Source: Flavobacteriales bacterium
GTDB taxonomy: Bacteria > Bacteroidota > Bacteroidia > Flavobacteriales_D > UBA2798
Length of the DNA: 64,000 nucleotides
Reading direction: 5' to 3'
Assembly: GCA_037443205.1 (NCBI GenBank)
Contig: JBBIOU010000015.1
Location: 9,800 to 73,799, forward strand
Position numbers and translations under genes: made by a program. Below are positions 12,777 to 47,289 of this stretch, piece after piece (positions within the stretch are counted from its first letter, which is position 1; every line of letters starts with the position of its first letter). Under the pieces are notes generated by a model, which was not told the DNA's origin, ran no database searches, and saw nothing but the letters and a program-made list of their open reading frames with translations.

Positions 12777-15341
12777 GTGTTTAACATTTTCCGGATATTT
12801 TTTTTACCAGTATTAATTTTACTCTTGCAGGCTTATGTATTATTTTCTCAAAATACTGCTACCCTTAAAGGCATTGTATTTAGCGAACTTAAAGAGCCGG
12901 TAAAACAAGCAGCCATAGGAATAGAAAAAAATAAAGCCATAACATTTACAGATAGCAGCGGGTATTTTACAATAAAAGTACCGGCTAATAAAAAAATAAC
13001 ACTTTATATTTCTCACCCTTCGTACGAAAACAAGCAATTAAATTATTTGCTCAAAGAAAATGATGTGTTAGAAACAAAAATTGAATTGAGCATAAAAACA
13101 CTACAAGATATTGATGTGTATGGGAAAAAGAAAGATGTTTTTAGCGGGGAAGATTATTTTAAAATTGATCCCCGTACGGCACCGATGCTTATACCCGGAG
13201 TAGAATCAATTATTAAAACAGCCGGGTTAGGCGTACGCTCTAATAACGAAATGAGTTCACAATACTCGGTTAGAGGAGGTAATTTTGACGAAAACCTGGT
13301 TTATGTAAACGGGATAGAGATATACAGACCATTTTTGGTTAGGGCCGGCCAACAAGAAGGTTTAAGTTTTATTAACCCTGATATGGTTGAACAAGTTTTC
13401 TTTTCGGCAGGTGGCTTTGAAGCACGTTATGGCGATAAATTATCATCGGTTTTAGATATTCAGTATAAACGGCCTACCGAAAAAATATCCGGTTCAGCAT
13501 CCCTTGGTTTAATGGATGGTTCTTTGCATCTGGCCGGAAAAACAAAAAACAACAGGTTTACACACCTTACAGGTATACGTTACAGAAACAATTCATATAT
13601 TTTAAATTCATTGCCTACAAAAGGTGACTACCGACCTATATTTGCCGATGCCCAAACTTTGCTTACCTACTCTCTCAGCGATAGTTGGGATGTCAGCTTA
13701 TTGGCTCATTACTCGGATAACATCTTTCGCTTTGTGCCCCAAACACGCGAAAGCGAATTTGGCACAATTAATCAGGCTCTAAAACTTATAGTTTATTACG
13801 AGGGTCAGGAAATTACCCGATACAAAAATTATACAACAGCCATCAGTACCAATATCAAAAAGAAAAAATACACTCTTAATTTCAATACTTCTTTTTTTAG
13901 AAGCATAGAGCAAGAATATTTTGATATTTTAGGCCAATACCGTTTAGCCGAGTTAAACCGCGATTTAGGTTCGGATGAGTTTGGAGAAATATTATTTATC
14001 AGAGGCATCGGCACTTATCTGAACCATGCCCGAAACAAATTGGACGCTTTGATATACAACGCCTCACATAACGGCACCTATTTACTTAAAAAAGGGAGTT
14101 TACTTTGGGGAGTAAAATATCAGGCAGAAATTATTAACGACCGGCTAAGCGAATGGAATTTTATAGACTCTGCCGGTTTTTCAATTCCTCAGCAACCCGC
14201 TGATCAAATTATCTTACAAGACGTAATAAAATCTAACGTTAAACTGCAATCATACAGAATAAGCGAATACCTGCAATATAAACGCACAAAATTTATACAA
14301 CAAGTTAAATCTTACAACGACTCAATATTCAATTCACAAGGCTCGATAGATTTTCATGTAGGTGTAAGAGGTCATTACTGGAGTTTAAACAATCAATTTG
14401 TTATTGCGCCAAGGGCGGGTATTGTATTTATTCCAAATTGGTATAAACGAAGTATAGATACCATTAAAAGAATTAATACTGTATTGCGATTAACGGGCGG
14501 TTATTACTACCAACCCCCGTTTTACAGAGAATTAAGAGATTTTTCGGGTAACCTAAATAAAAATTTATTGGCACAACGCTCTATACACTTTATTGCCGGT
14601 GGAGATATTTATTTTAATTTATGGGAACGCACTTTTAAATTTACCTCAGAGATATACTACAAACACTTAAATTTTGTTGTACCCTACGAAGTAGACAATG
14701 TACGTTTACGTTATTTTGCCAACAATGATGCAAGGGGATACGCAGCCGGCTGGGATTTTAAAATAAACGGAGAATTTATTAAAGGAATAGAGTCGTGGGC
14801 TACTCTATCCTTTTTACAAACACGTGAAGACATAAAAAACGATTCTTATACACATTATTATAATTCGGACGGAGAAAGAATTATTCCCGGATATACCTTT
14901 AATAATGTCGCGGTAGATTCTGCAACATTTTATCCGGGCTATATTCCCCGACCAACCGACCAATTGTTTTCTTTTAATTTATTTTTTCAGGATGAAATGC
15001 CCGGATTAGAACAATTTAAAGTACATCTAAATATGCAATTTGCCAGCGGACTACCCTTTGGACCACCCGACCATCTGCGTTATAAAGACACCTTGCGCAC
15101 AACCTGGTACCGAAGAGTTGATATTGGTTTCAGTTATCAATTTTTTAGTAAACGCGATAAAACAAAAATGCACGAATATAAAATTAAAGATCTGTGGCTT
15201 AGTTTGGAAGTGTTTAATTTATTGGGTATATTTAATACCATATCATACAACTGGATAGAAGATGCTGCCGGGTTAAGTTATGCCGTTCCTAATTATCTTA
15301 CCGCCAGAAGAATTAACTTAAAAATGATAGTAAAATTTTAA
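12777..15341 (+). CDS. TonB-dependent receptor with N-terminal carboxypeptidase-regulatory-like domain
   Basis: Signal peptide, then a CarbopepD_reg-like segment (LKGIVFSE...PVKQAAIGIEKNKAITFTDSSGYFTIKVP), a plug region (QYSVRGGNFDENLVYVNGIEIYRP) and a long beta-barrel ending in an aromatic residue (...KMIVKF). Confidence 0.8.
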   Translation: MFNIFRIFFLPVLILLLQAYVLFSQNTATLKGIVFSELKEPVKQAAIGIEKNKAITFTDSSGYFTIKVPANKKITLYISHPSYENKQLNYLLKENDVLETKIELSIKTLQDIDVYGKKKDVFSGEDYFKIDPRTAPMLIPGVESIIKTAGLGVRSNNEMSSQYSVRGGNFDENLVYVNGIEIYRPFLVRAGQQEGLSFINPDMVEQVFFSAGGFEARYGDKLSSVLDIQYKRPTEKISGSASLGLMDGSLHLAGKTKNNRFTHLTGIRYRNNSYILNSLPTKGDYRPIFADAQTLLTYSLSDSWDVSLLAHYSDNIFRFVPQTRESEFGTINQALKLIVYYEGQEITRYKNYTTAISTNIKKKKYTLNFNTSFFRSIEQEYFDILGQYRLAELNRDLGSDEFGEILFIRGIGTYLNHARNKLDALIYNASHNGTYLLKKGSLLWGVKYQAEIINDRLSEWNFIDSAGFSIPQQPADQIILQDVIKSNVKLQSYRISEYLQYKRTKFIQQVKSYNDSIFNSQGSIDFHVGVRGHYWSLNNQFVIAPRAGIVFIPNWYKRSIDTIKRINTVLRLTGGYYYQPPFYRELRDFSGNLNKNLLAQRSIHFIAGGDIYFNLWERTFKFTSEIYYKHLNFVVPYEVDNVRLRYFANNDARGYAAGWDFKINGEFIKGIESWATLSFLQTREDIKNDSYTHYYNSDGERIIPGYTFNNVAVDSATFYPGYIPRPTDQLFSFNLFFQDEMPGLEQFKVHLNMQFASGLPFGPPDHLRYKDTLRTTWYRRVDIGFSYQFFSKRDKTKMHEYKIKDLWLSLEVFNLLGIFNTISYNWIEDAAGLSYAVPNYLTARRINLKMIVKF

Positions 15342-15431: not shown

Positions 15432-18119
15432 ATGAAAAACATTAATTGGAAAAAATTTATTCCGCACCTTACTGCAATAGCAATTTTTTGGCTGCTTACT
15501 GCCGTCTATTTTTCACCCTTGTTCGAGGGCTACGAACTACGCCAGGGCGATGTAGTAAACTACAAAGGAATGGCCAAAGAAATTATAGAATACCGCAAAC
15601 AATTTGCTAAAGACCCATTATGGACAAATGCTATGTTTGGAGGTATGCCTGCTTATCAAATAGATATTAATAATGATATACCCATACGTTATATTGATAA
15701 AATATTAATGTTGGGCTTTTCGGGTGTGATTGGGTACTTTTTCTTGTTGTTTGTGGGATTTTATATACTCATGCTCAGTTTAAAAATAAGTCCCTGGCTG
15801 GGTATTGCCGGAGCGGTTGCTTTTGCATTTTCAACTTATTTTATAACTATTGTAGAAGCAGGACATAACACAAAAGTTCATGCCATAGCCTATATGCCCG
15901 CTGTACTGGGAGGATTATTGCTTACCTTAAGAGGAAATAAATGGTGTGGTGCAGCAATTTTTTCTCTGTCATTTGCTTTGCAGATAATGAGCAACCACCC
16001 GCAAATAACTTACTACATGTTTATGCTTTTTATCTTTATAGTAATTGGCGAAATTATTTTTGCTTTTATACCTAATCAAAGTTTGATTGGTCAAACAACA
16101 GAAAAAAATAAATTAAAATCATTGCTTTCGCGCTTTGCTCTGCTGGGAGTGGGCACCGCACTGGCAATAATGGCAAATTCGGTAAGTTTATGGAGCACTT
16201 ATGAATATGGCAAAGACACTACGCGCGGCTCATCCGAACTAACTATAAACCCCGATGGCAGCACCAAACAAGCTGAAAAAGGCTTGGATGCAGATTATAT
16301 TACCAATTGGAGCTATGGTAAAGATGAAACATTTACGTTTTTGATACCCGGTGCTAAAGGCGGTGCCAGCGGATATTTAAAACAAACGTATCCTGATATT
16401 CTCTCTCAGGTAGAAAATCCTACCTTCAGGCAAGTTTTGTCGGCCAATGATTTTAATTCATATTGGGGAGATCAGCCTTTTACTTCCGGTCCTTTTTATA
16501 TGGGTTCCATCATAGTATTTTTATTTATAATGAGTTTCATTTTTGTAAAAGATAAAATCAAATGGCCTATACTTTTAGCAACCATAGTGATGATATTGTT
16601 AAGCTGGGGTAAAAACTATATGGGATTTACGCAGTTTTTTCTGGATAATTTTCCGGCATACAATAAGTTTCGTGCAGTAACCATGATACTGGTTATTGTT
16701 TCGTTGCTGATGCCTTTTATGGCCGTGTTATTTTTACAACAACTCGAAGCAGAAAAGGAAAATAAACAATTCGCTAAAAAATTCATAACATCCTCTTTGG
16801 TATTTGCCGGCATCATGTTGTTGATAATCACAACCCCCAGGTCGTTTATCGGTTTTATAAGCCAGCAAGAAGCAGAAATGCTTAGCCCAAAAACAAACAA
16901 TCCGGAACAAATAGCTTTTTACGAAGAAATAAAAAACGGATTACAAGATTTGCGTGTCTATATTTTCAGACAAGATGCATGGCGAAGCCTGGCCTTTATA
17001 TTATCTGCTGCAGGATTAATTTATATTTATCTGCGCGGAAATATTAAAAATAAAATTGTATTATACAGCTCACTTGCAGTTTTAATAACAATTGATTTAT
17101 GGGTAGTTGATAAGCGTTTTTTGAATAACGAAGAAAATAATAACGGATATATATCCTGGCAAAAAAAAGGAACTGCTGCGTACAATGCAACCAAAGCTGA
17201 CTATGAAATTCTGACTATGGAAGCAAGCGCAAATCCCGAACTGGCAAAACAAATTCAAGAAAACACACAATTAAATACTAATCCGGGTGAAAAACCAAGT
17301 CAGGAACAAATTGATGATGCGGTATTTTACACCCTTAATTTTAATACCAATTATCGCGTTTTAGAATTAGGCAACCCTTTTAACAGTTCTAAAGTATCTT
17401 ATTTTCATAAATCAATTGGTGGATATCACGGAGCAAAACTTAAACGTTATCAGGAACTGATAGAATTTTATATCAACAAAGAACACCAGTTTATTATTGA
17501 ACAGTTACAAAACGGACTTACACCCGAAAAATTAGATTCTGTGTTAACAAACATACCAATATTAAATATGCTTAACACAAAATATATTATCTATAACCCT
17601 AATGCAACTCCTTTACAAAACAAAAATATATATGGAAACGCCTGGTTTGTAAACAATATCAAATGGGTAAACAATGCAAATGAAGAAATTACAGAATTGG
17701 GTAAAAATAATTTAAGAGAAACAGCCATTGCAAATAATCAATTTAAAAAAATCATCAATAAAGACGAATATACTGTTGATAGCACCGCAACTATTTCACT
17801 CTTATCATACCTTCCAAACCATTTGATATACGAAAGCAACAACTCACAAGACGGATTTGCCGTGTTTTCTGAAATATATTACAACAAAGGCTGGAAAGCC
17901 TACATAGACAACATAGCTGCCGAACACATTAATGTAAATTATGTATTAAGAGGCATGGCAATACCTTCGGGTAAACATGTCATCGAATTTAAATTTGAAC
18001 CCGATAGTTATACAAAAGCTAAAAATATTACATGGGCTTCTAATTTTATTTTACTGATTTTGGTAATATCATTAAGCTGGCTGGGCATAAAAAGCAAAAA
18101 AAACATCAAGCATGAATAA
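15432..18119 (+). CDS. YfhO-family polytopic membrane protein (putative glycan/lipid-linked sugar transferase)
   Basis: 895 aa with more than 10 predicted TM helices in the N-terminal two-thirds and a large C-terminal soluble domain. The N-terminus resembles Bacteroidota YfhO-family proteins as I recall them. Overlaps the downstream GT2 gene by 8 nt. Confidence 0.5.
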   Translation: MKNINWKKFIPHLTAIAIFWLLTAVYFSPLFEGYELRQGDVVNYKGMAKEIIEYRKQFAKDPLWTNAMFGGMPAYQIDINNDIPIRYIDKILMLGFSGVIGYFFLLFVGFYILMLSLKISPWLGIAGAVAFAFSTYFITIVEAGHNTKVHAIAYMPAVLGGLLLTLRGNKWCGAAIFSLSFALQIMSNHPQITYYMFMLFIFIVIGEIIFAFIPNQSLIGQTTEKNKLKSLLSRFALLGVGTALAIMANSVSLWSTYEYGKDTTRGSSELTINPDGSTKQAEKGLDADYITNWSYGKDETFTFLIPGAKGGASGYLKQTYPDILSQVENPTFRQVLSANDFNSYWGDQPFTSGPFYMGSIIVFLFIMSFIFVKDKIKWPILLATIVMILLSWGKNYMGFTQFFLDNFPAYNKFRAVTMILVIVSLLMPFMAVLFLQQLEAEKENKQFAKKFITSSLVFAGIMLLIITTPRSFIGFISQQEAEMLSPKTNNPEQIAFYEEIKNGLQDLRVYIFRQDAWRSLAFILSAAGLIYIYLRGNIKNKIVLYSSLAVLITIDLWVVDKRFLNNEENNNGYISWQKKGTAAYNATKADYEILTMEASANPELAKQIQENTQLNTNPGEKPSQEQIDDAVFYTLNFNTNYRVLELGNPFNSSKVSYFHKSIGGYHGAKLKRYQELIEFYINKEHQFIIEQLQNGLTPEKLDSVLTNIPILNMLNTKYIIYNPNATPLQNKNIYGNAWFVNNIKWVNNANEEITELGKNNLRETAIANNQFKKIINKDEYTVDSTATISLLSYLPNHLIYESNNSQDGFAVFSEIYYNKGWKAYIDNIAAEHINVNYVLRGMAIPSGKHVIEFKFEPDSYTKAKNITWASNFILLILVISLSWLGIKSKKNIKHE

Positions 18120-29118: not shown

Positions 29119-29261
29119 CCCAAATTCAGCATTAGAAATTTGGATTTATTTCAAATTTTCCGCAAGAGGCGGACTGAGTGCTTTGACAAAGGGGCGGGAT
29201 TTGGGTTATCCGCTCTCAGGCGAGCATTACGTATACTAATGCATAATGTAGGAAAAAAACA
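29119..29261 (+). repeat. Copy 2 of ~143-bp structured intergenic repeat
   Basis: See copy 1. Same orientation, ending 134 nt upstream of the SMC-like operon ATG. Confidence 0.7.
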
Positions 29262-29365: not shown

Positions 29366-29373
29366 TATATTTG
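29366..29373 (+). promoter_or_regulatory. -7 box (TAnnTTTG) for the SMC-like operon
   Basis: tatatttg, 22 nt upstream of ATG 29395. It overlaps the TTG at 29371 used by the ORF track, which argues for ATG 29395 as the real start. Confidence 0.45.
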
Positions 29374-29394: not shown

Positions 29395-32049
29395 ATGCTT
29401 AGTAAAATTGCTGTATTAAACTCGCGCGTATACGGAAAAGCAGTGGTACGCGTAGATGATTGCGACTCGCTTCAGTTAGTTGGCCCGAACAACATCGGAA
29501 AAAGTACACTGATATATGCGCTGAACTTTCTCTTTATTATTGATGGTAATAAAATGTCATTCAGCGGTCAACGCAAAGGTGATAAAGAAACTATACATCA
29601 CTACTTCCCTACTCCCAACCAAAGTTATATCGTTTTTGAAATACATAAAATACGTACTTATTGCGTATTGGTAAAACGCGATACCGATGGTGAATTAGAA
29701 TATTACCGATTTGATAGTGAATATCGCGATGATTTTTTCTTTCGGGAAGACGGATCGCAGCAACGCCTGCTAAAGTTTGATGAAGTACAGGAAAAATTGG
29801 CCGCCAGCGGTTTAGAACTAACTCAGTTCAGAAATAAATCAGAAGTATTCAGTTATGTATATCAGCGCGGTACCGATAATGACGCAATAGTATGGTTAGA
29901 AGAAAACGTTAAATCGGATGGTTTGAGTAATAATTTCTCAAAAGTTTACCGTTATCTGATTAATTCTAAATTAATTACCAATAAATCGTTAAAAGAAGCC
30001 CTCATCATTGCTGATAACAGAGAAAATGAAGTATTGAACTTTTCGCAAAAAAACAAGAAAGACATTATAGATTTATTGCGACTAAACGATGAAATAAAAG
30101 CAATTAAAGCCGTTAAAGATGATTTCTATAAATTTCGTGAAATAGTAAACGAATACAATTCACGCAATCATATATTAGCAGAACTAACCTATGCATTTGA
30201 GGAATTATACAAAAAAAATCTGCCCGAACTTGATGAACGGATACATAAATTTTCAAAAGAAATAAGTGAAACACAAAGCCAGGTTCAGGATTTTCTTCGC
30301 CCGCGTGAACAAGAAAACAACCGCAGGCTGGGACAAAAAGAATCGGAACTTACCGCACATCTCAGAGCCATCGAAAAACAACAAAAAGAAATACACGAAA
30401 TACATCAATTAGAAGGCTTTGAATTTTTAACCGAAGCGCTCGAAAATTTAGAGCGAAAACGCAAAGAAATAGAAGCACAGATTACTACTGTTGAAGCTCG
30501 TAATTACACTCCCGGACAAATCCGTTCAAGATTAGACATAATTAACGCCTCGATACGCGAAAAAGAAAACCGTATCAATAATTTTAATAATCTGCTTATT
30601 CATAAAATTTCGAATGACGAGCATACACGAAAATTATTAAACACCGTACTTTCCGAAAAAATAACCGGATTGCCTGCCGATAAAATACTCAGCAAAATAA
30701 GCAAAGCTACCCGCGACCTGAAAATATTTGACGGTGAAATAGACATCAGCGGCATTGAATTAAAAGATTTTACCACCGTTGAAGAAATGACAGCCGAGCT
30801 GGAAGAACTGAAAAAAGAAAAAGAACATTACGAAAACTTATTAAATACCATAACCGACAGCGAAACAGTTCAACAAGAATTAACGCTCATCAAACAAGAA
30901 ATTGACGATACCAAAGAAAAAATTAAAAAAATACGCTCGCTGCCCGAACTGGAACAAAACCTAAGTAAACTGCGCCTGGAATACGAAGAAACGCGCGAAG
31001 AAAAAGAAACCATCGAAGCCGAACTGAAAGACATTGCCGAAGATATACATCAAAAAGAATTACGCTTAGGCTTATTGAGAGAAGAAAAGAAAAAAGCCGA
31101 AGAAAAATTAAATGAATTGCGCGAACGCAAACAAGAAGTTGACTTTTTGAATCTGCAACCAATACCCTGCGAATTAACTGAAAGCATAGAACAAGTTTAT
31201 AATAAATTAAAAAAATATTATGGCGAACGACTGGAACTAAAATCACAAAAAGATAAAGCTTTCGATAATTTACGCTACCACCTAAAAAGCTCTATTGCCG
31301 ATGAAGACAGCTTTATTCACTATTTTGAAGAAGAAATAGCCTGCCTTGCAGATAAAGAAAAAAGTATTGACGGCCTCTTGCAAAGCATCTCTACACAATT
31401 TGCAAACCCCGCATACACACTTATTAAACGCTATGAAGAATTTAAACAATTTATTTACAATAAATTCAATCAAAAACTTGCACAAACCCGTATATCCGAT
31501 ATAGAATCTTTACAAATTGAGTTAATTGATAACAAACGAGTACTCAATGACATAAAAATGATAAGTTCTATCCAGGAACTAAACGGACAAATGATGCTCG
31601 AGTTCGACCAAAGCGAAAACCTGTCTATCTTAAATAATTATCTGGATAGTTCTAAACGCGTATATTTTGACGAATTATTTGACATTGAACTACATCTTAC
31701 ACTTAAAGGACATGTAAAAAAAGTTGACCTTGCCAATCAGGTAGAATCAGACGGAACAGACCGTATGATACGTTTGGTTATCATCATGTCTATTATTAAC
31801 CGCCTGGCCGTAAACCACGAGTTAAACCGCATAACACTCTTTATAGACGAAGTAGCAACCATAGACAAACACAATCGTCCGGAGTTGGTTAAATTTTGCC
31901 GCGAACACAACTTTATACCAATTTTTGCCGCCCCGGACCCTGTACCCGGATTTGGCAAATATTACTTTATCTATCCTTCAAAAGGAAAGATAAACATCAA
32001 CGAAAAACTAAATGCAGTTTACAGCGAACCTTTAGCCGAAACAAACTAA
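29395..32049 (+). CDS. SMC/MukB/JetC-like ABC ATPase with short coiled-coil arms
   Basis: Walker A GPNNIGKST (29482-29508). Two long heptad-rich Glu/Lys/Leu segments flank a non-coiled middle region. The C-terminal head has the signature-like ESDGTDRMIRLVIIMSIINRL (SDGT at 31747-31758) and Walker B LFIDEV (31837-31854) about 30 aa later. Confidence 0.75.
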   Translation: MLSKIAVLNSRVYGKAVVRVDDCDSLQLVGPNNIGKSTLIYALNFLFIIDGNKMSFSGQRKGDKETIHHYFPTPNQSYIVFEIHKIRTYCVLVKRDTDGELEYYRFDSEYRDDFFFREDGSQQRLLKFDEVQEKLAASGLELTQFRNKSEVFSYVYQRGTDNDAIVWLEENVKSDGLSNNFSKVYRYLINSKLITNKSLKEALIIADNRENEVLNFSQKNKKDIIDLLRLNDEIKAIKAVKDDFYKFREIVNEYNSRNHILAELTYAFEELYKKNLPELDERIHKFSKEISETQSQVQDFLRPREQENNRRLGQKESELTAHLRAIEKQQKEIHEIHQLEGFEFLTEALENLERKRKEIEAQITTVEARNYTPGQIRSRLDIINASIREKENRINNFNNLLIHKISNDEHTRKLLNTVLSEKITGLPADKILSKISKATRDLKIFDGEIDISGIELKDFTTVEEMTAELEELKKEKEHYENLLNTITDSETVQQELTLIKQEIDDTKEKIKKIRSLPELEQNLSKLRLEYEETREEKETIEAELKDIAEDIHQKELRLGLLREEKKKAEEKLNELRERKQEVDFLNLQPIPCELTESIEQVYNKLKKYYGERLELKSQKDKAFDNLRYHLKSSIADEDSFIHYFEEEIACLADKEKSIDGLLQSISTQFANPAYTLIKRYEEFKQFIYNKFNQKLAQTRISDIESLQIELIDNKRVLNDIKMISSIQELNGQMMLEFDQSENLSILNNYLDSSKRVYFDELFDIELHLTLKGHVKKVDLANQVESDGTDRMIRLVIIMSIINRLAVNHELNRITLFIDEVATIDKHNRPELVKFCREHNFIPIFAAPDPVPGFGKYYFIYPSKGKININEKLNAVYSEPLAETN

Positions 32050-32052
32050 AAC

Positions 32053-33246
32053 ATGAAAGCAGAAGCACGCACCATACTTTACTTCCTGTGGAATCACTTC
32101 GACTTGCTGAATGAGCTGTTTGAAGAACAAATGCAAAAAGGATATTTGCGCAGAGAATCGCTGGCAAATATTTTAAAAAAATACGAACATGATGTGTCGG
32201 ATAAACTACACGAATACAAAATACTTCGAAGCATAAACGAAGATTTTGAAATACGCCCTGTATTTTTTAATCTGGTTGAATTTGTACAAAACGAATTTAA
32301 ACCCGTATTGCCCGAAACCATAGAAAAATACGGATTTTCTATAACCAACTTATTTAAAAAAATAAAAGAAGGCATTAATGGCGATAAAGAAATTTTAATC
32401 AAACGTATAGAAGATGTGCTGTCGGAAGTGCGACACTTTGTTGAGTCAATAGAAAAAAATACCACCAAACTATTACAGGAAACACGCGCTTTAAAATCGA
32501 ATATAGAAAAAATAGATTATCGGGAAAAAGTACACCGCGCATCCGGGTGGATTGAGCATTACATTGTTCCTTTAAACGAGATACTCGATGTAAATCAACA
32601 TGGTTCACTAACCAACCAATTACACGAAGTAGCTTATTTTGTTAATCTTAAACGCTTAGATTTTCATGACGAGAATGTAAGAGCTCAGTTTGAAAAATTA
32701 TATTCGTTTTTAATCCAAACCAATGACGACCTGTTAAGACAATCTAAAATTCTTACCAATGAATTACTGCCGCTCATTGAACGAATTAAAACCGAGTCGC
32801 TGATACTTTCGGGGTGGATTGAATTTTTGCGCAGGCCATATCATACCGAAGTTCCCCGATTATTCAAAACATCCAGAGAAAACACCTATCAACGTAACTT
32901 CTACTTGGTAGCAAAAGAATATCTGGAGCAATTTTTAGTAGATGAGCCTGTAATGGTAGAAGAAGTTACTGCCTTTCAACAACGCTGGATTTTTAACCGC
33001 GATTTATACAAGGCCAAACTCGAAGCAAAACTTCCTATAGAAGATTTTTTTGAATGGTGTGGAAAAACAGCAAAGAAAGATTTTCATGAATTAAATCAGG
33101 AAAAATTCTTTTCGCTGGTGAGTTTAATTTTTGAAGATGATATGATTCTGGAAGCCGATAAAAATGCTCCACACACCCAACTACAATTAGAAGATGCTAT
33201 CCTACACGTACCTAAAGTAAAAATTGATAAACATGGAATATCCTAA
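32053..33246 (+). CDS. All-helical kleisin-like (MukF/MksF/JetA-like) subunit candidate
   Basis: Starts 3 nt after the ATPase stop. 397 aa, predicted helical throughout. Assigned from its position between the SMC-like ATPase and the MukE-like protein; no diagnostic motif was seen. Confidence 0.45.
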   Translation: MKAEARTILYFLWNHFDLLNELFEEQMQKGYLRRESLANILKKYEHDVSDKLHEYKILRSINEDFEIRPVFFNLVEFVQNEFKPVLPETIEKYGFSITNLFKKIKEGINGDKEILIKRIEDVLSEVRHFVESIEKNTTKLLQETRALKSNIEKIDYREKVHRASGWIEHYIVPLNEILDVNQHGSLTNQLHEVAYFVNLKRLDFHDENVRAQFEKLYSFLIQTNDDLLRQSKILTNELLPLIERIKTESLILSGWIEFLRRPYHTEVPRLFKTSRENTYQRNFYLVAKEYLEQFLVDEPVMVEEVTAFQQRWIFNRDLYKAKLEAKLPIEDFFEWCGKTAKKDFHELNQEKFFSLVSLIFEDDMILEADKNAPHTQLQLEDAILHVPKVKIDKHGIS

Positions 33247-33763
33247 ATCACACAAACACATCGTAAAAGAATTGTTAGACGGGAAATTTATGCTGCACAG
33301 CGACCCGCTCTATCAAATATTAAAAGATAACCGCGATTTTTACGAACAATTTTTTAAAGAATCGTTTAATTATGAACTCCGGTTTAACAACGATTTTGCG
33401 TTTTTATTATCAACCGAAACCAACGAAACACTTTCAAGAGATATATGTATTTTCTTTGCTTTATTAAGTTATGAAATAGACCGAGACGGGCGAAATTTTA
33501 TTGAAGAAATACAATATTCGGAATGGGATATGGAACGTATTAATCAATATTTTGACAATACTACATATATTGAATTAGTACATAGCAATAAACAACTGCG
33601 CGACCACGACTCCAGAGCTACCTTTATCAATGCCCTTAGCAGGCGAAACATCATCGAAAAAACCACCGAAGGAAGATTTATTTTTACGGCTGCATACAAA
33701 GTATTTATTGATTTTGCAGCAGAACTTGCAAAAAATAAAGTAAAAGAAGGAATGATTGATTAA
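33233..33763 (+). CDS. MukE/MksE/JetB-like (KITE-type) subunit candidate
   Basis: ATG 33233 overlaps the upstream stop by 14 nt (alternative TTG at 33224). HIVKELLDGKFMLHSDPLYQILKDNRDFYEQFFKESFNYELRFNNDFAFLLS resembles the N-terminal 'LLkG.l......w..L......i..yf..iGleL..de..gyAfL' pattern of DUF4194/MukE-like proteins. The C-terminal ...GRFIFTAAYKVFIDFAAEL resembles their C-terminal helix. Confidence 0.5.
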   Translation: MEYPKSHKHIVKELLDGKFMLHSDPLYQILKDNRDFYEQFFKESFNYELRFNNDFAFLLSTETNETLSRDICIFFALLSYEIDRDGRNFIEEIQYSEWDMERINQYFDNTTYIELVHSNKQLRDHDSRATFINALSRRNIIEKTTEGRFIFTAAYKVFIDFAAELAKNKVKEGMID

Positions 33764-33786: not shown

Positions 33787-36054
33787 TTACCATTTTATTG
33801 CAAAGCGATTAAATAATACATATCCCACATTAAATGCAAAACTAATCGGTTGCTCTTGTTCGGGGTAATAATTTAGCCATACGGCAATAGGTCCGATCGG
33901 GCTATGATATACGGCCGAACCACTGGCCACATAATAGCGCCTGCTAAGTGGTTTGCTGTAATAAGCCAGGTTGTTTTCATCCGACCGAATGTTAAACGTA
34001 GGCTGAAACACATATCCCTCTATTCTGAAATCAATATTTTTTTTGAAATGAACTATTGTTTGAATGCCGGCCGAGATGTATTGATGCGCTCTGAAGTCGG
34101 GCATAAATCTTGTTTTCATCTCCGGCAATGGCTGGTAAACAGGAGCCTCTAAAATGGTTGATGTATAGTTATTATAAAATGCTTGCGTAGAAAATACTCC
34201 TTCTGCATGAAATCCTAAACGTATAGCACCTTTTTCAACAAAATAATTTTGAAATTCTAATTTTGCCGTAATATAATTATGATATTTATCCGAAGTATCT
34301 CTTATTAATGAAGTTGAACCCGGTATGGTATATTCATGCGCATAAACATACCTTGCACCTAAAAAAAAGTATCTGCCTTGATTGGCAAACATCTTTTTAT
34401 TGAGTGAACTCCTTTCAAAATATAATCCCGGTGAATAGGCGTAAATGCGCGTTTTATCGGCAGTGTCTGTGGTACGAAATTGCTCGGTTTGATAATATTC
34501 ATGTAATATGTCAGCATACCTAAGGTTTAAAATAATCTTACTTTTATTGGTTACCGAAAAGCCGGTGTTTAAACCTGAGTATTGTTCTGTTTGTATTAAA
34601 TAGGATGGTTTAACATCTTCAAAAAAAGTTGCAAAACTTTTAAAATAGTCCCAGCGATGAATTACATATTCGGGTTCAAAATAATAAGGATTTCTGGAAG
34701 CGGGTTCAAATCTTAACGAGGCATATCCGCCCGCATAAAATTTACCAAACCACGAACGCAAAGTTAAGGTATAGGCTGCTTTATCAAGCAAGTGATATTG
34801 GACACCAATGTATCCGGTATTTACAGGTCGTGAAGAAAAGTTACCGCCAAATTCTGTACTTATTTCCTTGCCTTTTTTTACTTGTACCTGAAATTTGTAT
34901 TTTTTTGTAATACTATCAAATTCGGCTATGGGATACATAAATCCTATCTTATCATCGTTATACAATCGCATATATCTTTTTTCAATGTCAGTTAATGTAG
35001 TGTTTTTTTCTTTGCCCTTTTGTAATAATCGTCTTACATATACCTGCTGCTTAGAGTTTAAACCGCTTACTTCTATTTTATTAAAAACGAGCGGATAGAA
35101 TTTCTTTTTAAAATTTTCTCTTTTTAGTCTGATTTCTTCGGCACTGACTCTTCTATCGCCTATCAATAATTTAATTGAGTCTATCAATAAAAGCGCTTGA
35201 CGATAACCTCTCTCTATAGCTTCTTCGGCCTGATCAAAATCAAAGGTAGTCATATCGCGGGTATCGGGTTTAATAAGCACGCTATACTTACAATTTAAAG
35301 TAAAATCCTGCTGATGAACAATCATGTTTTTAATTTGTGAGAATACATTATCTTCTTCGGGCGGACGAGTATTACCGGACACATTGCTTCCAATCATAAC
35401 ATCAGGCAAAAAAGCATCATACATAACATCTGCCGGAAAATTATTATACAATCCTCCGTCAAACAAAAGTTTACCATTTATTTTAATAGGTTTTAAATAT
35501 AAAGGATAAGACATGGATGCTCTAACTGCCTGGTGCAGGTAACCGGACGAAAACACGATAGACTTTTTATCTACAATATCTGATGCCACACATCTGAAAG
35601 GCACCATCAGACTGTCGAAATTATAGTTTGCAGCCGCTGCTGCCATACTTAATCCTTTCATCATTTCAAAATCCATAAGTGCTGGCGAAACAAAATATGA
35701 GGGCAGCACAGATTGTTTTAATGAGTCTTTCTTAAATCTAAAAGTTACCCAGGAAGGAGTATTTTCAAATTGCTTGATATAATATTTATGTTTGGCATCC
35801 ATTTCGCCCTTGCTCATTTTTAAAAAAAGTTCTGACTTTACCATCGCCTCAATCTCTGCCGGACTATAGCCCGCAGCATACATGCTACCTACCAAAGCTC
35901 CGGCAGATGTACCGGTTATAAAGTCTATGGGTATTCCGTGTTCTTCAAGCGCTTTTAAAACACCTATATGTGCCATACCTGCTGCTCCGCCTCCGCTAAG
36001 TACCAGACCAACTTTTTGAGCTGACACAGGTATGCTCAACAGCAAAAAAAACAA
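33787..36054 (-). CDS. Patatin-like phospholipase fused to an Omp85/surface-antigen-type beta-barrel
   Basis: Oxyanion GLVLSGGGAAG and nucleophile GTSAG motifs, a DGG catalytic Asp region (LFDGGLYNNFP), and a long C-terminal beta-rich region ending in an aromatic residue (...FAIKW). Confidence 0.8.
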   Translation of the reverse strand: MFFLLLSIPVSAQKVGLVLSGGGAAGMAHIGVLKALEEHGIPIDFITGTSAGALVGSMYAAGYSPAEIEAMVKSELFLKMSKGEMDAKHKYYIKQFENTPSWVTFRFKKDSLKQSVLPSYFVSPALMDFEMMKGLSMAAAAANYNFDSLMVPFRCVASDIVDKKSIVFSSGYLHQAVRASMSYPLYLKPIKINGKLLFDGGLYNNFPADVMYDAFLPDVMIGSNVSGNTRPPEEDNVFSQIKNMIVHQQDFTLNCKYSVLIKPDTRDMTTFDFDQAEEAIERGYRQALLLIDSIKLLIGDRRVSAEEIRLKRENFKKKFYPLVFNKIEVSGLNSKQQVYVRRLLQKGKEKNTTLTDIEKRYMRLYNDDKIGFMYPIAEFDSITKKYKFQVQVKKGKEISTEFGGNFSSRPVNTGYIGVQYHLLDKAAYTLTLRSWFGKFYAGGYASLRFEPASRNPYYFEPEYVIHRWDYFKSFATFFEDVKPSYLIQTEQYSGLNTGFSVTNKSKIILNLRYADILHEYYQTEQFRTTDTADKTRIYAYSPGLYFERSSLNKKMFANQGRYFFLGARYVYAHEYTIPGSTSLIRDTSDKYHNYITAKLEFQNYFVEKGAIRLGFHAEGVFSTQAFYNNYTSTILEAPVYQPLPEMKTRFMPDFRAHQYISAGIQTIVHFKKNIDFRIEGYVFQPTFNIRSDENNLAYYSKPLSRRYYVASGSAVYHSPIGPIAVWLNYYPEQEQPISFAFNVGYVLFNRFAIKW

Positions 36055-36157: not shown

Positions 36158-37561
36158 ATGATAAAAATTTGTTTACGACTTGCTTTTATTTTTATACTTC
36201 TGGCAATATTAACGTGGGTGCTGGGGTTTATTAATTCTAAAAACCAACCTAAACACATCCATTATTTACCCGATAGCAGTAAATTATTATTTGTAATAAA
36301 TACCAAATCTTTTGCTAATAATATTATGCAAATTGCTTGTTTTAATCAAAAAGATTTTCAAAGTCTCATATCAGAAGAAGCTGAGGGTGAAAATATATTG
36401 TTAAAGGAAGGAAACCCGGGCATTGATTTAAACAGTAAAGCAACTATATTAATTGATGATAAACAAATATATTTATTTGCTGATTTAAAAAACAAATTAA
36501 ATTTTGAAAAGTTTTTACAGAAAAAATCATTTGTAATTCAAAACAGAGCTCCCTATTTTTTTGCTTCAAATAATCACCAGCAAATACTTTATAACAATGA
36601 AATACTTATTTGCCAACTAAACAAGACTGACTCGGATACGGAGAAAAAAATGGCCTCATGGTTAGCACAAAAAAATACGCTATCAGAAAAAATTATTGCT
36701 GACATATATGAATCAGAAAAACAACTGGAATTATACTATTTAGAAGATAACAATCATGTATTTGATGTGGGTGTAGTTTTTGATAAAGATGCCATTACCA
36801 TAAACGCTTGTTTGACATATACCGGTAATATAAACAATGAAATAATATGCACAGGGGATATTTCGTTTTTTGAAAAAAATAATTTTGCCATCTATTCCTC
36901 TCAAGGTTTATTATCAGTAAAAATAGAGGAACTGCTGCCAAAGGAAGTCAGTAGCATATACATTTTAAAAAAATTATTCCAAACACATAATAAACAATCA
37001 GTATATGCTTACGCAAATGATGTAGTTTCAAGCCATATATATCTTACTAAAAGTGATAAAACTGTTTCTGATTACAAAAAACTTCCATTTTACATGCCTG
37101 TTTTGCGGCTGGCATATTCCATAGATTCAAAAGAATTAATAATGCAAGATTTAAACGCTTATTTAAACGACACTGTGCTTATAAAACACGCAAACTACTA
37201 TCAACTCATGCTGCCGGGCGATTATTCATTGTATTTTAAAATATTTGATAAACATCTGGCTATTTCGGTTGATACAAATTTTATAACTCAAATACCACGC
37301 CCCGAAGAAACAGGCTTCAGCTACTTTTACTATTCCAGTTTAGAAAATTACACCAATGCAATTCCCACATTTTCTCCGGATGGTTTTATGATAAAAAGTT
37401 TTTTAGAGATGAAATCAACCATCAATCGCATCTATATTTACGCTACACACCGCGACAACAATAAAATATATTTTACCGGAAAAATATTTATAGGAGACGA
37501 GCAATATCATAGCCTGATAGAAACCATTAAAATACTGCAAAGTAATTTATCGCTACTTTAG
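36158..37561 (+). CDS. Hypothetical membrane-anchored protein
   Basis: N-terminal TM helix (LAFIFILLAILTWVLGF). No motif recognised. Confidence 0.5.
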   Translation: MIKICLRLAFIFILLAILTWVLGFINSKNQPKHIHYLPDSSKLLFVINTKSFANNIMQIACFNQKDFQSLISEEAEGENILLKEGNPGIDLNSKATILIDDKQIYLFADLKNKLNFEKFLQKKSFVIQNRAPYFFASNNHQQILYNNEILICQLNKTDSDTEKKMASWLAQKNTLSEKIIADIYESEKQLELYYLEDNNHVFDVGVVFDKDAITINACLTYTGNINNEIICTGDISFFEKNNFAIYSSQGLLSVKIEELLPKEVSSIYILKKLFQTHNKQSVYAYANDVVSSHIYLTKSDKTVSDYKKLPFYMPVLRLAYSIDSKELIMQDLNAYLNDTVLIKHANYYQLMLPGDYSLYFKIFDKHLAISVDTNFITQIPRPEETGFSYFYYSSLENYTNAIPTFSPDGFMIKSFLEMKSTINRIYIYATHRDNNKIYFTGKIFIGDEQYHSLIETIKILQSNLSLL

Positions 37562-39847: not shown

Positions 39848-39948
39848 TTTTTGTACTTCCACTGAATTAAATGCGTGATGCATTTAGTAATTTGACAGAA
39901 TCTGACTGTCAATATGATATACATTTATTAATATTAAATACAAAAATC

Positions 39949-41208
39949 ATGAAATTAAAAATCAAAATCGTGTTTTTATTGTTTGCATTATTTATACCTG
40001 TAGTGCTTATGGCGAATATGCAAACTAAAGCAGAAATTGCAGGAATAAAAATAGAGTTTATCTTATTTGGTTTAACTTTATTGGGAATTGTTGTTTTTCA
40101 CAAAGAAGCTTTCTTAGTAGCAATAACAGGCTTAATATTGATAACAGCCTGTAAACTGTCTTTATATCCAAATTTCAGTTTGGCGGAACATATTACCGGT
40201 AATAATTTCGGTGAAGGTGAATGGAAAACTTTGCTTAATTTATTTTTGCTGCTACCGGGCTTTGCTGTGCTGGCAAAAATTTTTGAAACAAGTAATGTGC
40301 CGCAAGTATTGCCCAAAATTTTACCGGATAATTGGCTGGGAGGATTTTATTTATTATTAATTATCCTGATTCTATCTTCATTTTTAGACAATATTGCGGC
40401 TGCACTGATAGGCGGCACAATAGCTGCAGGAGTTTATCAAAACAAAGTACATATAATGTATATTGTTTCTATTATTGCCGCAAGTAATGCCGGTGGAGCA
40501 GGTAGCATCATTGGTGATACCACTACTACGATGATGTGGATTGATGGCATATCACCTCTTACAGTATTACCTGCCTATATTGCATCTATAGGGTCGTTTA
40601 TATCTTTTGCTTTTATTGCTTCTTATATTCAGCAAAAACACCAGCCTATTCAAAAAGATGTATTACCCGGAGTTGAAATTAAAACCCAAAAATTGCTCTC
40701 GGTTGTAATAATTATTTTTTTAACCATTGCAGGTAATTATGCATTAGATTTTCCCTCAATAGGTGTTTGGTCAGGAATAATTATTTCGGGCATTTATACT
40801 AGCATACCGTATAAAGAGTCGTTAAAAATGATTAAAAGCACCTTATTTTTATTATGCCTTGTTTTTTCGGCCTCGCTTATGCCTATCGAAGACTTACCCC
40901 AGCCATCGGTAATAAGCACCTTTTCTTTTGGGTTTATATCGGCATTTTTTGATAACATTCCGCTTACTAAATTATGTCTTGAACAAAGCAACTACGATTG
41001 GGCATTATTAGCCTTTGCCGTAGGTTTTGGAGGCTCTATGATTTGGTTTGGTTCCTCAGCCGGTGTAGCCTTAACCAACCAATTTCCCGAGAGCCAGTCT
41101 GCTATCAAATATTTAAAAAATTCCTGGCATGTAATAATAGCCTACATCGTTGGCTATATACTGCTGTATTTAATTATGGGTTGGAACCCTGTAAATCACA
41201 AATTATAA
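39949..41208 (+). CDS. ArsB/NhaD-superfamily (CitMHS-like) ion/anion permease
   Basis: About 11-12 TM helices, with SSFLDNIAAALIGG and FFDNIPLT repeat motifs typical of this superfamily. Start moved to ATG 39949 (MKLKIKIVFLLF...). Confidence 0.6.
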   Translation: MKLKIKIVFLLFALFIPVVLMANMQTKAEIAGIKIEFILFGLTLLGIVVFHKEAFLVAITGLILITACKLSLYPNFSLAEHITGNNFGEGEWKTLLNLFLLLPGFAVLAKIFETSNVPQVLPKILPDNWLGGFYLLLIILILSSFLDNIAAALIGGTIAAGVYQNKVHIMYIVSIIAASNAGGAGSIIGDTTTTMMWIDGISPLTVLPAYIASIGSFISFAFIASYIQQKHQPIQKDVLPGVEIKTQKLLSVVIIIFLTIAGNYALDFPSIGVWSGIIISGIYTSIPYKESLKMIKSTLFLLCLVFSASLMPIEDLPQPSVISTFSFGFISAFFDNIPLTKLCLEQSNYDWALLAFAVGFGGSMIWFGSSAGVALTNQFPESQSAIKYLKNSWHVIIAYIVGYILLYLIMGWNPVNHKL

Positions 41209-44814: not shown

Positions 44815-47289
44815 TTATCGCATTAAAGTTATGTTTCCGCTTTGGTTAATTTCTGAACCGTCACTCAATATCGCGTAAAGTTTGTATGTATAAACTCCGC
44901 TGTTTAATTTTTGTCCTTTGTATGTACCATCCCAACCTACGCTTTGACTGGTAGTATTAAATATTTTTTCGCCCCAGCGATTATAAATGGTAAAGTTCAA
45001 TCCGATTATGTTTTCGCCTAAAACATATAAAACATCGTTAATACCATCTCCGTTAGGCGAAAATGCATTGGGTATGGCTGCTCCGGCCGGTTGTTTAAAA
45101 TGTGCTATAATTACATCATTGGCAGCAAAGGTAGTGCTAATGGAAGAATCTTTATCGCTGGGAGTAGGTGTGCTTGCCATTTCCCAATAATCAAATTCCC
45201 ACCCGCCATAAGCATCAGCTTTTAGTAAGGTTTCAATGCCTCCGTAGTAGGTTCCATACCATGGAAAAGTTTCAATGTGTACGGAATTTATGTCAACTGT
45301 TCCTGAATTGGGTGGATCAACCAGCACGGTAATATTGTATGGTCCGGTTAAATTGTAGCAATCTATCATGGCTTGCGAAAATGCTGCACAACGTTGATTA
45401 ATAAAATCTCTGATTAATTGCACATTGCTTTGCCACGTTGCATAAGAACCACCCCAGCGGGTAATATGCGCTTGCATTTCGGGGTCTATCACTGCCACCA
45501 TGCTATCTAACACATGAAGCATATGAGGACATGAGAAAGTTGTATTTGCCAAATCGGCATATCGGGAAATATAGTATTGTTTAAAAATAGGATTTTCCAT
45601 TAATTTAGAGATAATGTCCGTATGACCTTGACCACCCGGATTAGGAAGATTCTCTGGGTCGCAAGGACCTGCAGTTGGGGAAGAATTGGGGATTCCCGTA
45701 AAATTCACATAATGTCCAAAGGTTGCATCTAAATCCCACAATATATATCTCCATTTCTTTTTATCTCCTAAAGGATTCAATCCCCTCCACCAGCCGGTGT
45801 TCCAATTAAGCCAATCTTTATTTACCGTATATGAATTTATACAGAAATAATCTACCAGACTTTGCCAGTTTAGCAAGCTGTCTACATAGTTCCAGTTAGC
45901 GGGTATGGAACAATCGTTCGACATAATAAATGTTCTTAGAGTATTCCAGTCGGTTGAGGCTGCTGCACCTCCATACTCATTCCACGTACCACCCCAGGTT
46001 TTAATAAACTGGATGTATTCCGGAGAGCCGTTATATTTTTCGTCCTGATCATAATAATACGAAGTATAATCTTTATCATCTACTTTTTCACGTAAATCGT
46101 AAACACCCCAGTATTGACCATTTGCATACAACACACAAAACAGCGAGGTTCTTTCGTCCAGTTTTAAATTTCCGATATCTGAAAGCGTGTGTATATAAGC
46201 GTCTCTGATATGAGCACCGTTACCGGGTGCAAAGGGGTAATTATCGCAAGCTCCCGCTTTTAGTATAATGCGCTGAAATGTTTGCCTGTTTTTAGAATTA
46301 AAAAATTTATGTTTCAGTGCATAGCTGTAGCCATGTTGATCTCTGGTTATAAAGTCTATTCCTCTTTGTCCGTATGCCCAGGAATCGTTGCCGTGTTTAT
46401 TAGCTTCTCCAACGGCTTCGGTTTTAAATTGTTTATCTGCACCAAAATATTCAATACCTGCATCCGGGGTAATTTGGCTGCCACCTAAAAGTGTACCGAT
46501 TTGGTCGCCAAATATAGAAACTACAGGCACAGTATGGTTTACGTTTATAAAATACGTATTACTTTCTGTAAAACTTGCCGGTGTACCGGCTAAAAATGCC
46601 TTTGCGCGTAAAACTGTGGTTGTGGCAATATTTACGGGAGCGGTATAAAGCGTAGAAGCTGCCGTTGGCTCACTGCCATTGGTGGTGTATCGAATTTCAG
46701 CACCGGGTGTGGCACAGGTAATACTTACATTTTGTGCCGATGAGTAAAATCCTGCATTGATGCTCATAACGGGGCGGGCAACGTAATCCGGTTGTGCGTT
46801 TATGTTTGCGGCTCCGGGAGTTGGCGTTATAAACAAACTCCAACTCGTTGCACCATCTGTTGTTCTGCCGCGGGAATGATCTTTTTGTGTTGGATTTAAA
46901 GTAATATTTTCCAAAATTGTTCCCGAAGGATCTGAAAATACCAGATTTTCGGGTTGTGTTTGGTTTAACCTGAAATTTGTATGCACACCGGGGGCAATAA
47001 CCGCATCGCGACCACTGCAAAAAACCAGCAAATATCCATTAGCCGGCACACTTGTTCCTGCAGGGAATTGCCATTTGGTGGGATTGTTGGCTTTATCACT
47101 AAAATAATAACCTGTTAAATTTACCGCTGTGCTGCCCGGATTATAAAATTCTACCCAATCATCTCTGTCTCCGGCCGACTGAATACCATTGAGATTCGCA
47201 CAAGAATACTCGTTTATTACTACCTGTGCATATAAGTTTTCAGTAAATAATAAAGTTAAAATGAAGAATGAACGGTAAATAAATTTCAT
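44815..47289 (-). CDS. T9SS cargo: lamin-tail-domain + CotH-like domain + type-B C-terminal domain protein
   Basis: LTD: VVINEYSCAN...DWVEFYNPGSTAVNLTGYYFSD. The central region is CotH-like. The C-terminus IPNAFSPNGDGINDVLYV...IYNRWGEKIF...WDGTYKGQKLNSGVYTYKL...GNITLMR is a type-B CTD. Confidence 0.75.
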   Translation of the reverse strand: MKFIYRSFFILTLLFTENLYAQVVINEYSCANLNGIQSAGDRDDWVEFYNPGSTAVNLTGYYFSDKANNPTKWQFPAGTSVPANGYLLVFCSGRDAVIAPGVHTNFRLNQTQPENLVFSDPSGTILENITLNPTQKDHSRGRTTDGATSWSLFITPTPGAANINAQPDYVARPVMSINAGFYSSAQNVSITCATPGAEIRYTTNGSEPTAASTLYTAPVNIATTTVLRAKAFLAGTPASFTESNTYFINVNHTVPVVSIFGDQIGTLLGGSQITPDAGIEYFGADKQFKTEAVGEANKHGNDSWAYGQRGIDFITRDQHGYSYALKHKFFNSKNRQTFQRIILKAGACDNYPFAPGNGAHIRDAYIHTLSDIGNLKLDERTSLFCVLYANGQYWGVYDLREKVDDKDYTSYYYDQDEKYNGSPEYIQFIKTWGGTWNEYGGAAASTDWNTLRTFIMSNDCSIPANWNYVDSLLNWQSLVDYFCINSYTVNKDWLNWNTGWWRGLNPLGDKKKWRYILWDLDATFGHYVNFTGIPNSSPTAGPCDPENLPNPGGQGHTDIISKLMENPIFKQYYISRYADLANTTFSCPHMLHVLDSMVAVIDPEMQAHITRWGGSYATWQSNVQLIRDFINQRCAAFSQAMIDCYNLTGPYNITVLVDPPNSGTVDINSVHIETFPWYGTYYGGIETLLKADAYGGWEFDYWEMASTPTPSDKDSSISTTFAANDVIIAHFKQPAGAAIPNAFSPNGDGINDVLYVLGENIIGLNFTIYNRWGEKIFNTTSQSVGWDGTYKGQKLNSGVYTYKLYAILSDGSEINQSGNITLMR

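Follow-up and report, generated by a model that had tools for sequence, protein, structure and literature searches.

A probable MksBEF-type complex with a short-armed SMC-like ATPase on a Bacteroidota chromosome

Gene content and organization of the locus

A gene for an ATPase of the structural maintenance of chromosomes (SMC) type was examined together with its partner genes in a 64,000-nucleotide stretch of the Flavobacteriales bacterium assembly GCA_037443205.1 (contig JBBIOU010000015.1, positions 9,800 to 73,799, forward strand), which is referred to throughout as the window. The open reading frame (ORF) runs from an ATG at 29395 to a stop at 32049 (884 codons), and an original prediction, made from the sequence alone, had described its product as an SMC-like ATPase with short arms and a divergent signature motif. 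It was found to be the first of three closely spaced genes, being followed after a 3-nucleotide gap by a gene for a 397-amino-acid kleisin-like protein, which in turn overlaps the gene for MksE by 14 nucleotides. The same 14-nucleotide overlap is present in the related locus L001. A TTG at 29371 was considered as an upstream start and rejected, and the ATG at 29395 was retained as the start of the ATPase because its homologues begin with MLxRI. The genes and the motifs of the ATPase are given below.

29395 to 32049, plus strand: SMC-like ATPase of the MksB/JetC type, 884 amino acids (assigned from its motifs, the AlphaFold2 model, Foldseek and hhalign against Escherichia coli MukB)
29482 to 29508, plus strand: Walker A motif GPNNIGKST, residues 30-38 (read from the translation)
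30580 to 30777, plus strand: small hinge-like segment, residues 396-461 (short helices in the AlphaFold2 model; NNLLIHKIS and FDGEIDIS blocks conserved)
31744 to 31767, plus strand: signature motif ESDGTDRM, residues 784-791, SxGT type (aligns with MukB LSTGE)
31837 to 31866, plus strand: Walker B LFIDEV, residues 815-820, and D-loop ATID, residues 821-824 (align with MukB LFLDEAARLD)
31924 to 31950, plus strand: FAAPDPVPG, residues 844-852, in place of the H-loop (aligns with MukB QLIIAAPENISPEKG)
32053 to 33246, plus strand: kleisin-like subunit in the MksF/JetA role, 397 amino acids (assigned from the AlphaFold2 architecture, weak MukF matches and hhalign to the PF28010 type)
33233 to 33763, plus strand: MksE, the KITE subunit, 176 amino acids (Pfam PF21980)

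The ATPase features a MukB-type head

Conservation of the ATPase was assessed in a 28-sequence alignment in which identity falls to 17%. Residues K36, S785, G787, D818 and E819 were invariant, as were N32 and G35 of Walker A, while T788 and A845 were nearly so. The head keeps an intact Walker A lysine, the signature serine and glycine, and the Walker B aspartate-glutamate pair. The GPNNIGKST, ESDGTDRM, LFIDEV and ATID strings that had been reported originally were all recovered and are conserved among homologues, and the alignment indicates that these motifs are not chance occurrences. No conserved histidine was found past Walker B in the same alignment; H838 is invariant among close relatives only.

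When the ATPase family profile was aligned with E. coli MukB by hhalign (probability 95.7%, E=9.5e-9, 343 columns), ESDGT was paired with LSTGE, LFIDEVATID with LFLDEAARLD, and IPIFAAPD with QLIIAAPE. Common to the two proteins are an SxG(E/T) signature, a DE-type Walker B with an xxxD D-loop after it and, where the H-loop would be, an AAP strand. Because of these pairings, the supposedly divergent signature and the missing His-switch are features held in common with MukB. The original prediction was right that ESDGTDRM occupies the signature position and that no His-switch can be found, but the peculiarity that it saw in both extends to MukB, which has LSTGE and the AAP-type strand of QLIIAAPE.

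A structural model of the ATPase was built with AlphaFold2 from an alignment of 24 homologues (mean predicted local distance difference test score, pLDDT, 71.9; predicted template modelling score, pTM, 0.36). The best Foldseek matches of this model in the PDB were MukB chains (9gm9_A, E=6e-16; 9gm6_B, 2e-15; 7nyw_B, 2e-15), with MukB E-values ranging from 6e-16 to 7e-15. These were followed by Rad50 (7zr1_C, 1.8e-10), JetC of Wadjet types II and I (4e-9 to 2e-7), Smc5/6 and condensin, and there was a weak match to type II Lamassu (9uxh_F, E=0.011). When PDB sequences were searched with the full-length ATPase, whether as a single sequence or as a 24-sequence profile, nothing beyond coiled-coil noise came up (for example Beclin, mS27 and designed coils). 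A profile restricted to the C-terminal head matched MukB alone (E of 0.002 and 0.008). The head is a MukB-type ABC (ATP-binding cassette) ATPase, in agreement with the earlier assignment of the protein to the SMC-like ABC class.

Other SMC families were also searched for. The SMC and Rad50 models of NCBIfam scored far under their cutoffs (about 22 bits for TIGR02168 and TIGR02169 against cutoffs of 567-729), and among the Pfam models SMC_hinge, ScpA and ScpB gave no match and SMC_N reached only E=0.33. A canonical Smc-ScpAB identity was rejected on the missing SMC_hinge, ScpA and ScpB matches, the ESDGT signature and the lack of a conserved histidine. A RecN identity was likewise rejected.

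Predicted arms and hinge of the ATPase

The AlphaFold2 model contains long helices at residues 218-395 and 462-697, separated by a segment at 396-461 that consists of short helices or is of low confidence, with low pLDDT at 432-453. The predicted layout of the protein is an N-terminal head (1 to ~217), an arm (218-395), the hinge (396-461), a second arm (462 to ~640), and a conserved neck with the C-terminal head (~640-884). A crude heptad score exceeded the 95th percentile of shuffled sequences over residues 194-418, 428-588 and 593-672, and within the hinge N396, L401 and F445-D446-G447 are invariant among close relatives. These boundaries bear out the arms at about 235-395 and 470-690 and the non-heptad middle at about 395-470 that had first been drawn by eye. 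Each arm is modelled at ~175 residues around a hinge of ~65 residues. Because the full length of the model matches MukB and JetC chains in Foldseek, the two arms are predicted to pair in antiparallel fashion.

By our own estimate, using ~0.15 nm per residue, an arm of this predicted length would measure ~26 nm, compared with ~50 nm in Smc and MukB (PMC4255302). It had been proposed originally that the arms are about half the canonical Smc or MukB length and unusually so. The first part agrees with the model, while the second does not, since a coiled coil shorter than in Smc or MukB has been described for MksB (PMC4255302). The much smaller DNA-entrapment lumen that had also been deduced would be a reasonable consequence of such arms. 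Short arms also hold for the entire family, as every full-length member is 860-950 amino acids long.

The kleisin-like and MksE partners

The assignment of the third gene is direct, as its product matches Pfam PF21980 at E=6.7e-23 over profile positions 2-161 of 163. The second gene product was tentatively assigned from several lines of evidence. Its AlphaFold2 model begins with a winged helix, continues through a helical bundle and a disordered linker (269-311) and ends in a second winged helix, and this succession is the kleisin layout of MukF and JetA. MukF chains were among its best PDB matches in Foldseek, with weak values (3rpu_B, 0.027; 3euh_A, 0.032; 1t98_A, 0.075 with probability 0.96; 7nyw_C, 0.087). 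The family of the 397-amino-acid protein was also aligned over its full length by hhalign with the PF28010-type first-gene products of the sister operons described below (probability 77.6%, E=1.9e-5). This profile alignment is the best evidence that the protein may serve as the kleisin of an Mks-type operon. It was noted that the protein had no Pfam, NCBIfam or PADLOC match, and none of the 24 family members matched a kleisin family when scanned with Pfam.

The region upstream of the ATPase was examined for signals of transcription. The TAnnTTTG consensus marks Bacteroidetes promoters, and one such element was found as follows.

29366 to 29373, plus strand: candidate operon promoter with the Bacteroidota-type -7 element TAnnTTTG, TATATTTG, 29 nucleotides upstream of the ATPase ATG

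Of 82 related loci, 44 have TAnnTTTG at a distance of 21-40 nucleotides before the ATPase start, the expectation being ~0.02 per 80 nucleotides. Its recurrence there fits an operon that starts with the ATPase gene. A sigma-70 promoter scan upstream of the ATPase did no better than shuffled sequences, the sigma-70 model being unsuited to Bacteroidota. Scans with Rfam and for tRNAs, run both on the entire window and on the 516 bp that precede the ATPase, found nothing. Within this very A+T-rich spacer there is a G+C-rich patch at 29160-29230 on the plus strand (…ccgcaagaggcggactgagtgctttgacaaaggggcgggatttgggttatccgctctcaggcgagc…), which holds no tRNA and has no meaningful Rfam match (psRNA2 at E=0.91 only).

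Distribution and neighbourhood of the trio

The relatives of the ATPase form 737 clusters at 90% identity, and the 397-amino-acid protein belongs to a parallel family of 777. The 120 ATPase relatives listed are 872-911 amino acids long and 55-73% identical, those with names coming from metagenome-assembled genomes (MAGs) of Bacteroidota. A profile search of 1.84 billion representatives recovered 643 proteins at E <= 0.001 (representatives at 50% identity), all of whose full-length members are 860-950 amino acids long. The ATPase is carried by at least 402 GTDB species genomes, a count taken from a scan with two peptide patterns and skewed to close relatives. The best 80 of these carriers were nearly all MAGs labelled with Bacteroidota groups, along with one complete genome (CP012155.1) and a few entries with evidently wrong taxon labels.

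The gene order of ATPase (B), kleisin-like gene (F) and MksE (E) was kept in 77 of 83 loci, the others being truncated contigs. The kleisin-like gene directly follows the ATPase in 77 of the 83, and the MksE gene is kept downstream in 76. Across 75 neighbourhoods, no conserved fourth gene was found beside the trio and none of the window's own neighbour genes recurred. The commonest flanking gene, of which an example member is a UPF0004/radical-SAM enzyme by Pfam, occurred in 25 of the 75 loci, and the flanks vary and are mostly housekeeping in nature (GrpE-DnaJ, DnaB and Lgt). The trio is kept as a unit in hundreds of genomes of Bacteroidota, its surroundings being variable and mostly of the housekeeping type, and the ATPase clade looks confined to Bacteroidota and vertically conserved rather than patchy. 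At L072:9605-9952 there is only a 116-amino-acid kleisin-like fragment between intact ATPase and MksE genes, which could reflect a decaying operon or an assembly artefact.

In the window, a gene for a patatin-like phospholipase of 755 amino acids (33787-36054, minus strand; Pfam Patatin, 4e-33) converges on the operon and ends 23 nucleotides from the MksE stop. It has weak matches to CBASS (cyclic-oligonucleotide-based antiphage signalling system) lipases and to anti-phage lipases and is probably unrelated to the operon. As an effector partner it was rejected, since it lies next to the operon in none of the 75 related neighbourhoods.

A sister clade with a JetD-like fourth gene

The sister clade was reached through a search with P0363, one of the most distant ATPase profile matches (~17-20% identity), and four of its relatives were examined in their contigs. 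All four carry a four-gene operon (L086:6173-11677, L087:4176-9625, L088:4149-9629 and L089:4225-9599), arranged as follows.

Gene 1: ~415 amino acids, precomputed Pfam PF28010 "MksB"
Gene 2: ~195 amino acids, PF21980 MksE
Gene 3: ATPase of ~920 amino acids, PF28007 "MksF"
Gene 4: ~290 amino acids, DUF7281 (weak or absent in some)

The Pfam labels of the first and third genes may be swapped relative to the literature, in which MksB is the SMC-like ATPase (PMC10123090). The sister ATPases are homologous to that of the window (~1e-33 to 1e-41 with the window profile; 910-935 amino acids) and share with it an MksE and a homologous kleisin-like protein, and they differ in an identity of only ~17-20% and in the order kleisin-MksE-ATPase-Toprim. 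The operons occur in Bacteroidales, Fibrobacter and Gammaproteobacteria. They are also often plasmid-borne or near defence-type genes: relatives were found on proteobacterial plasmids and megaplasmids, all annotated as hypothetical, and in places beside AbiE-, PLD- and helicase-type genes. The fourth protein, present in all four examined, carries Toprim-like VENQ and FPDYDxxG motifs, weak PADLOC JetD matches (1.2e-5 and 1.1e-4) and a faint Pfam Toprim_2 match. PADLOC gave weak matches for the ATPase, MksE and fourth gene of L086 and left the kleisin unmatched. The clade looks like an unclassified compact type of Wadjet.

A hidden Markov model of the DUF7281/JetD-like proteins was then applied to the relatives of the window operon. 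It found no JetD-like ORF in the window (best E=3.5) and none in 76 of 78 informative related loci. In the remaining two, a gene for a DUF7281/JetD-like Toprim protein of ~270 amino acids lies exactly between the ATPase and kleisin-like genes (L074:4034-4723 and L075:7460-8272). PADLOC matched the L075 protein to JetD1 at 2.4e-5. The JetD-like proteins are ~270-300 amino acids long and match only the C-terminal part of the PADLOC JetD profiles, which have 345-409 positions. The loci L070 and L072, in which the kleisin-like gene comes directly after the ATPase gene, encode ATPases with 98.7% identity to that of L074, and a DNA alignment of L075 with L050 showed a single indel of ~817 bp that corresponds to the JetD-like (G) gene. 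From these comparisons the G gene behaves as a clean presence/absence cassette. The resulting order B-(G)-F-E is a cyclic permutation of F-E-B-G.

Comparison with described SMC systems

The window operon was compared with MksBEF, MukBEF and Wadjet. MksBEF complexes are reportedly MukBEF-like SMC complexes, an account attributed to Petrushenko and colleagues in 2011. Similar to MksBEF, the window carries a chromosomal operon for three subunits (a MukB-like ATPase, a kleisin-like protein and MksE of the KITE type), with no nuclease gene and with a coiled coil shorter than that of Smc or MukB. It differs in that its ATPase and kleisin-like protein are too divergent for the Pfam, NCBIfam and PADLOC models used, and in that its clade is restricted to Bacteroidota, where it looks vertically conserved and not patchily distributed. 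A literature search for MksBEF with Bacteroidota or Flavobacteria returned no description of the clade.

With E. coli MukBEF the operon shares, beyond the motifs, MukB as the best structural match and the sole PDB match by sequence profile, as well as the MukF chains among the best matches of its second gene product. MukB is 1486 amino acids long, compared with 884 for the window ATPase, whose arms are about half as long and whose hinge is smaller. The gene order is permuted, the window kleisin-like protein lacks detectable sequence similarity to MukF, and the KITE subunit matches Pfam MksE while Pfam MukE is not among its matches.

Wadjet (JetABCD/MksBEFG/EptABCD) has the same core of kleisin (kleisin-like in the window), KITE and SMC subunits, its JetC chains are strong Foldseek matches, and a short JetD-like Toprim gene is carried by distant relatives and by two close relatives of the window operon. 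The window subunits are smaller, however (~885 amino acids for the ATPase, compared with 1111 for Corynebacterium glutamicum MksB; PMC10123090). PADLOC matched neither JetA nor JetB in the window and JetC only partially (E >= 8.5e-5). Because there is no JetD gene and no PADLOC call, the window operon is not a Wadjet as defined.

Interpretation and alternative explanations

We consider that the ORF encodes the SMC-like motor, of the MksB/JetC type and related to MukB, of a three-gene MksBEF-type complex encoded in one operon of ATPase, kleisin-like and MksE genes, and we assign this a probability of roughly 80%. The protein had been left unplaced among SMC-like proteins in the original prediction. 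Its kleisin-like and MksE partners, together with the structural and profile matches to MukB, now place it within the MukBEF-like MksBEF group and apart from LmuB and Rad50. No new kind of machine is involved: the protein belongs to a Bacteroidota subfamily that has yet to be characterised, in which the gene order is permuted and a JetD-like cassette is facultative.

Several observations weigh against this assignment. The order B-F-E of the window departs from the canonical F-E-B order (mksFEB / mukFEB). The kleisin assignment is statistically weak (Foldseek E of ~0.03 at best and an hhalign probability of 77.6%), and no similarity was found by hhalign between the 397-amino-acid family and E. 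coli MukF. The AlphaFold2 models are of modest confidence (pTM 0.36 and 0.43), with low pLDDT over the signature helix at 780-805 of the ATPase. None of the curated models reached its threshold on the ATPase except the generic AAA_21, PADLOC gave only partial, weak matches to JetC (E >= 8.5e-5), LmuB (E=0.0011) and AriA (E=5e-5), and a precomputed PF28007 match was present in only one (P0014) of the 120 listed close homologues. Lastly, the JetD-like genes in close relatives and the location of sister operons on plasmids or near defence-type genes allow a role in defence.

The most serious competitor is a working anti-plasmid Wadjet of the JetABCD type, whose nuclease would be encoded elsewhere in the genome or whose ABC core would restrict or silence plasmids on its own. 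The Toprim-type fourth gene of the sister clade with its weak JetD matches, the JetD-like gene between B and F in two Bacteroidota loci, and the sister operons on proteobacterial plasmids near AbiE-, PLD- and helicase-type genes speak for such a system. We nevertheless regard it as unlikely, given the lack of a JetD-like ORF in the window and in 76 of the 78 informative loci, the failure of PADLOC to see JetA or JetB, the varying housekeeping surroundings in which the patatin neighbour never recurs, and the conservation of the family over at least 402 species.

A DNA-end or repair sensor of the Rad50/SbcC or Lamassu LmuB type is suggested by the Joint Genome Institute label 'SbcCD ATPase subunit', by the Rad50 and weak Lamassu matches in Foldseek and the LmuB value in PADLOC, and by the similarly short coiled coils of LmuB (~20 nm; PMC10586767). 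It is very improbable: no cysteine lies between residues 91 and 591 of the ATPase and there is no CxxC zinc hook, Walker B retains its glutamate, unlike that of many LmuB proteins, and neither SbcD/Mre11 nor LmuA/LmuC is among the partners, which are MksE and a kleisin-like protein. The Foldseek E-value of MukB is moreover five orders of magnitude better than that of Rad50, and MukB is the only protein found by the sequence profile. Slighter still is the chance that the ATPase is a stand-alone ABC/AAA_21 protein (AbiEii/OLD-like) with a fortuitous helical linker and no relation to the genes downstream. AAA_21 is indeed its only Pfam match at the gathering threshold (27.8 bits against 27), and PADLOC adds the AriA match noted above, but the AAA_21 match covers just the P-loop region at 28-134, the full-length fold matches MukB and JetC, and the three genes show translational coupling and stay together in 77 of 83 loci.

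For the MksBEF-type complex, a mechanism can be proposed by analogy with MukBEF and JetABC, drawing on the SMC literature (PMC10586767; bioRxiv 10.1101/2022.10.04.510915). Two ATPase chains would dimerise at the hinge, and their heads would be engaged by ATP held between the Walker A motif of one and the SxG signature of the other. The kleisin would link one head, at its cap, to the neck of the other, and would probably dimerise through its N-terminal winged helix, with an MksE dimer sitting on its middle region. The resulting ring might entrap or extrude DNA in ATP-driven cycles, and with the predicted ~26-nm arms its compartment or step would be smaller than that of Smc or MukB. By the same kind of analogy, with Pseudomonas aeruginosa MksBEF, the complex would most likely organise or segregate the chromosome without the help of a nuclease; it may instead act in defence, either alone or together with a nuclease encoded elsewhere.

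The lineage appears to have descended from a compact four-gene Wadjet-like system, with the Toprim nuclease mostly lost. A more far-reaching version is tentative, and we hold it to be somewhat doubtful: that the complex is a vertically inherited condensin found throughout Bacteroidota, adopted by the phylum from a compact Wadjet-like defence system, with about the shortest arms (~26 nm) among known kleisin-KITE SMC complexes, and that the nuclease cassette has caught this transition in the act.

Other features of the window

Three large proteins in the window end in a CHU_C type IX secretion signal (7074-8954, plus strand; 44815-47289, minus strand; 49465-53436, plus strand). Among their other domains, one has PKD domains, one has CotH kinase, Lamin Tail and chitobiase C-terminal domains, and one has six SprB repeats. 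A TonB-dependent receptor is encoded at 12777-15341. The CHU_C proteins and the TonB-dependent receptor mark the window as Bacteroidota chromosome, with a G+C content of 35.7%. No Pfam match at the thresholds used was found for three further ORFs on the plus strand, at 15432-18119 (895 amino acids), 36158-37561 (467 amino acids) and 39871-41208 (445 amino acids), and the 467-amino-acid ORF was blank in NCBIfam and PADLOC as well.

Significance

The features that first drew attention to the ATPase are shared with MukB or already known for MksB and do not amount to new biology; the evolutionary side observation is of more interest. Hundreds of Bacteroidota genomes label the trio as "hypothetical", "SbcCD ATPase" or "EcfA2", and it can be re-annotated as an MksBEF-type SMC complex, a likely second SMC-type system in a phylum whose chromosome organisation has been little studied. 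As a kleisin-KITE complex with arms predicted at about half the usual length, it would be a small, naturally occurring system in which to test how the length of the arms affects DNA capture and loop extrusion. Loss of the nuclease from defence systems has been proposed as the origin of the housekeeping complexes Muk and Mks (PMC10586767), a proposal to which the JetD-like cassette, present in some and absent from other near-identical cores, is relevant. If the tentative derivation of a condensin from Wadjet is true, the family would be a natural experiment for the proposed route from JetABCD to MksBEF/MukBEF and for the effect of arm length on loop extrusion.

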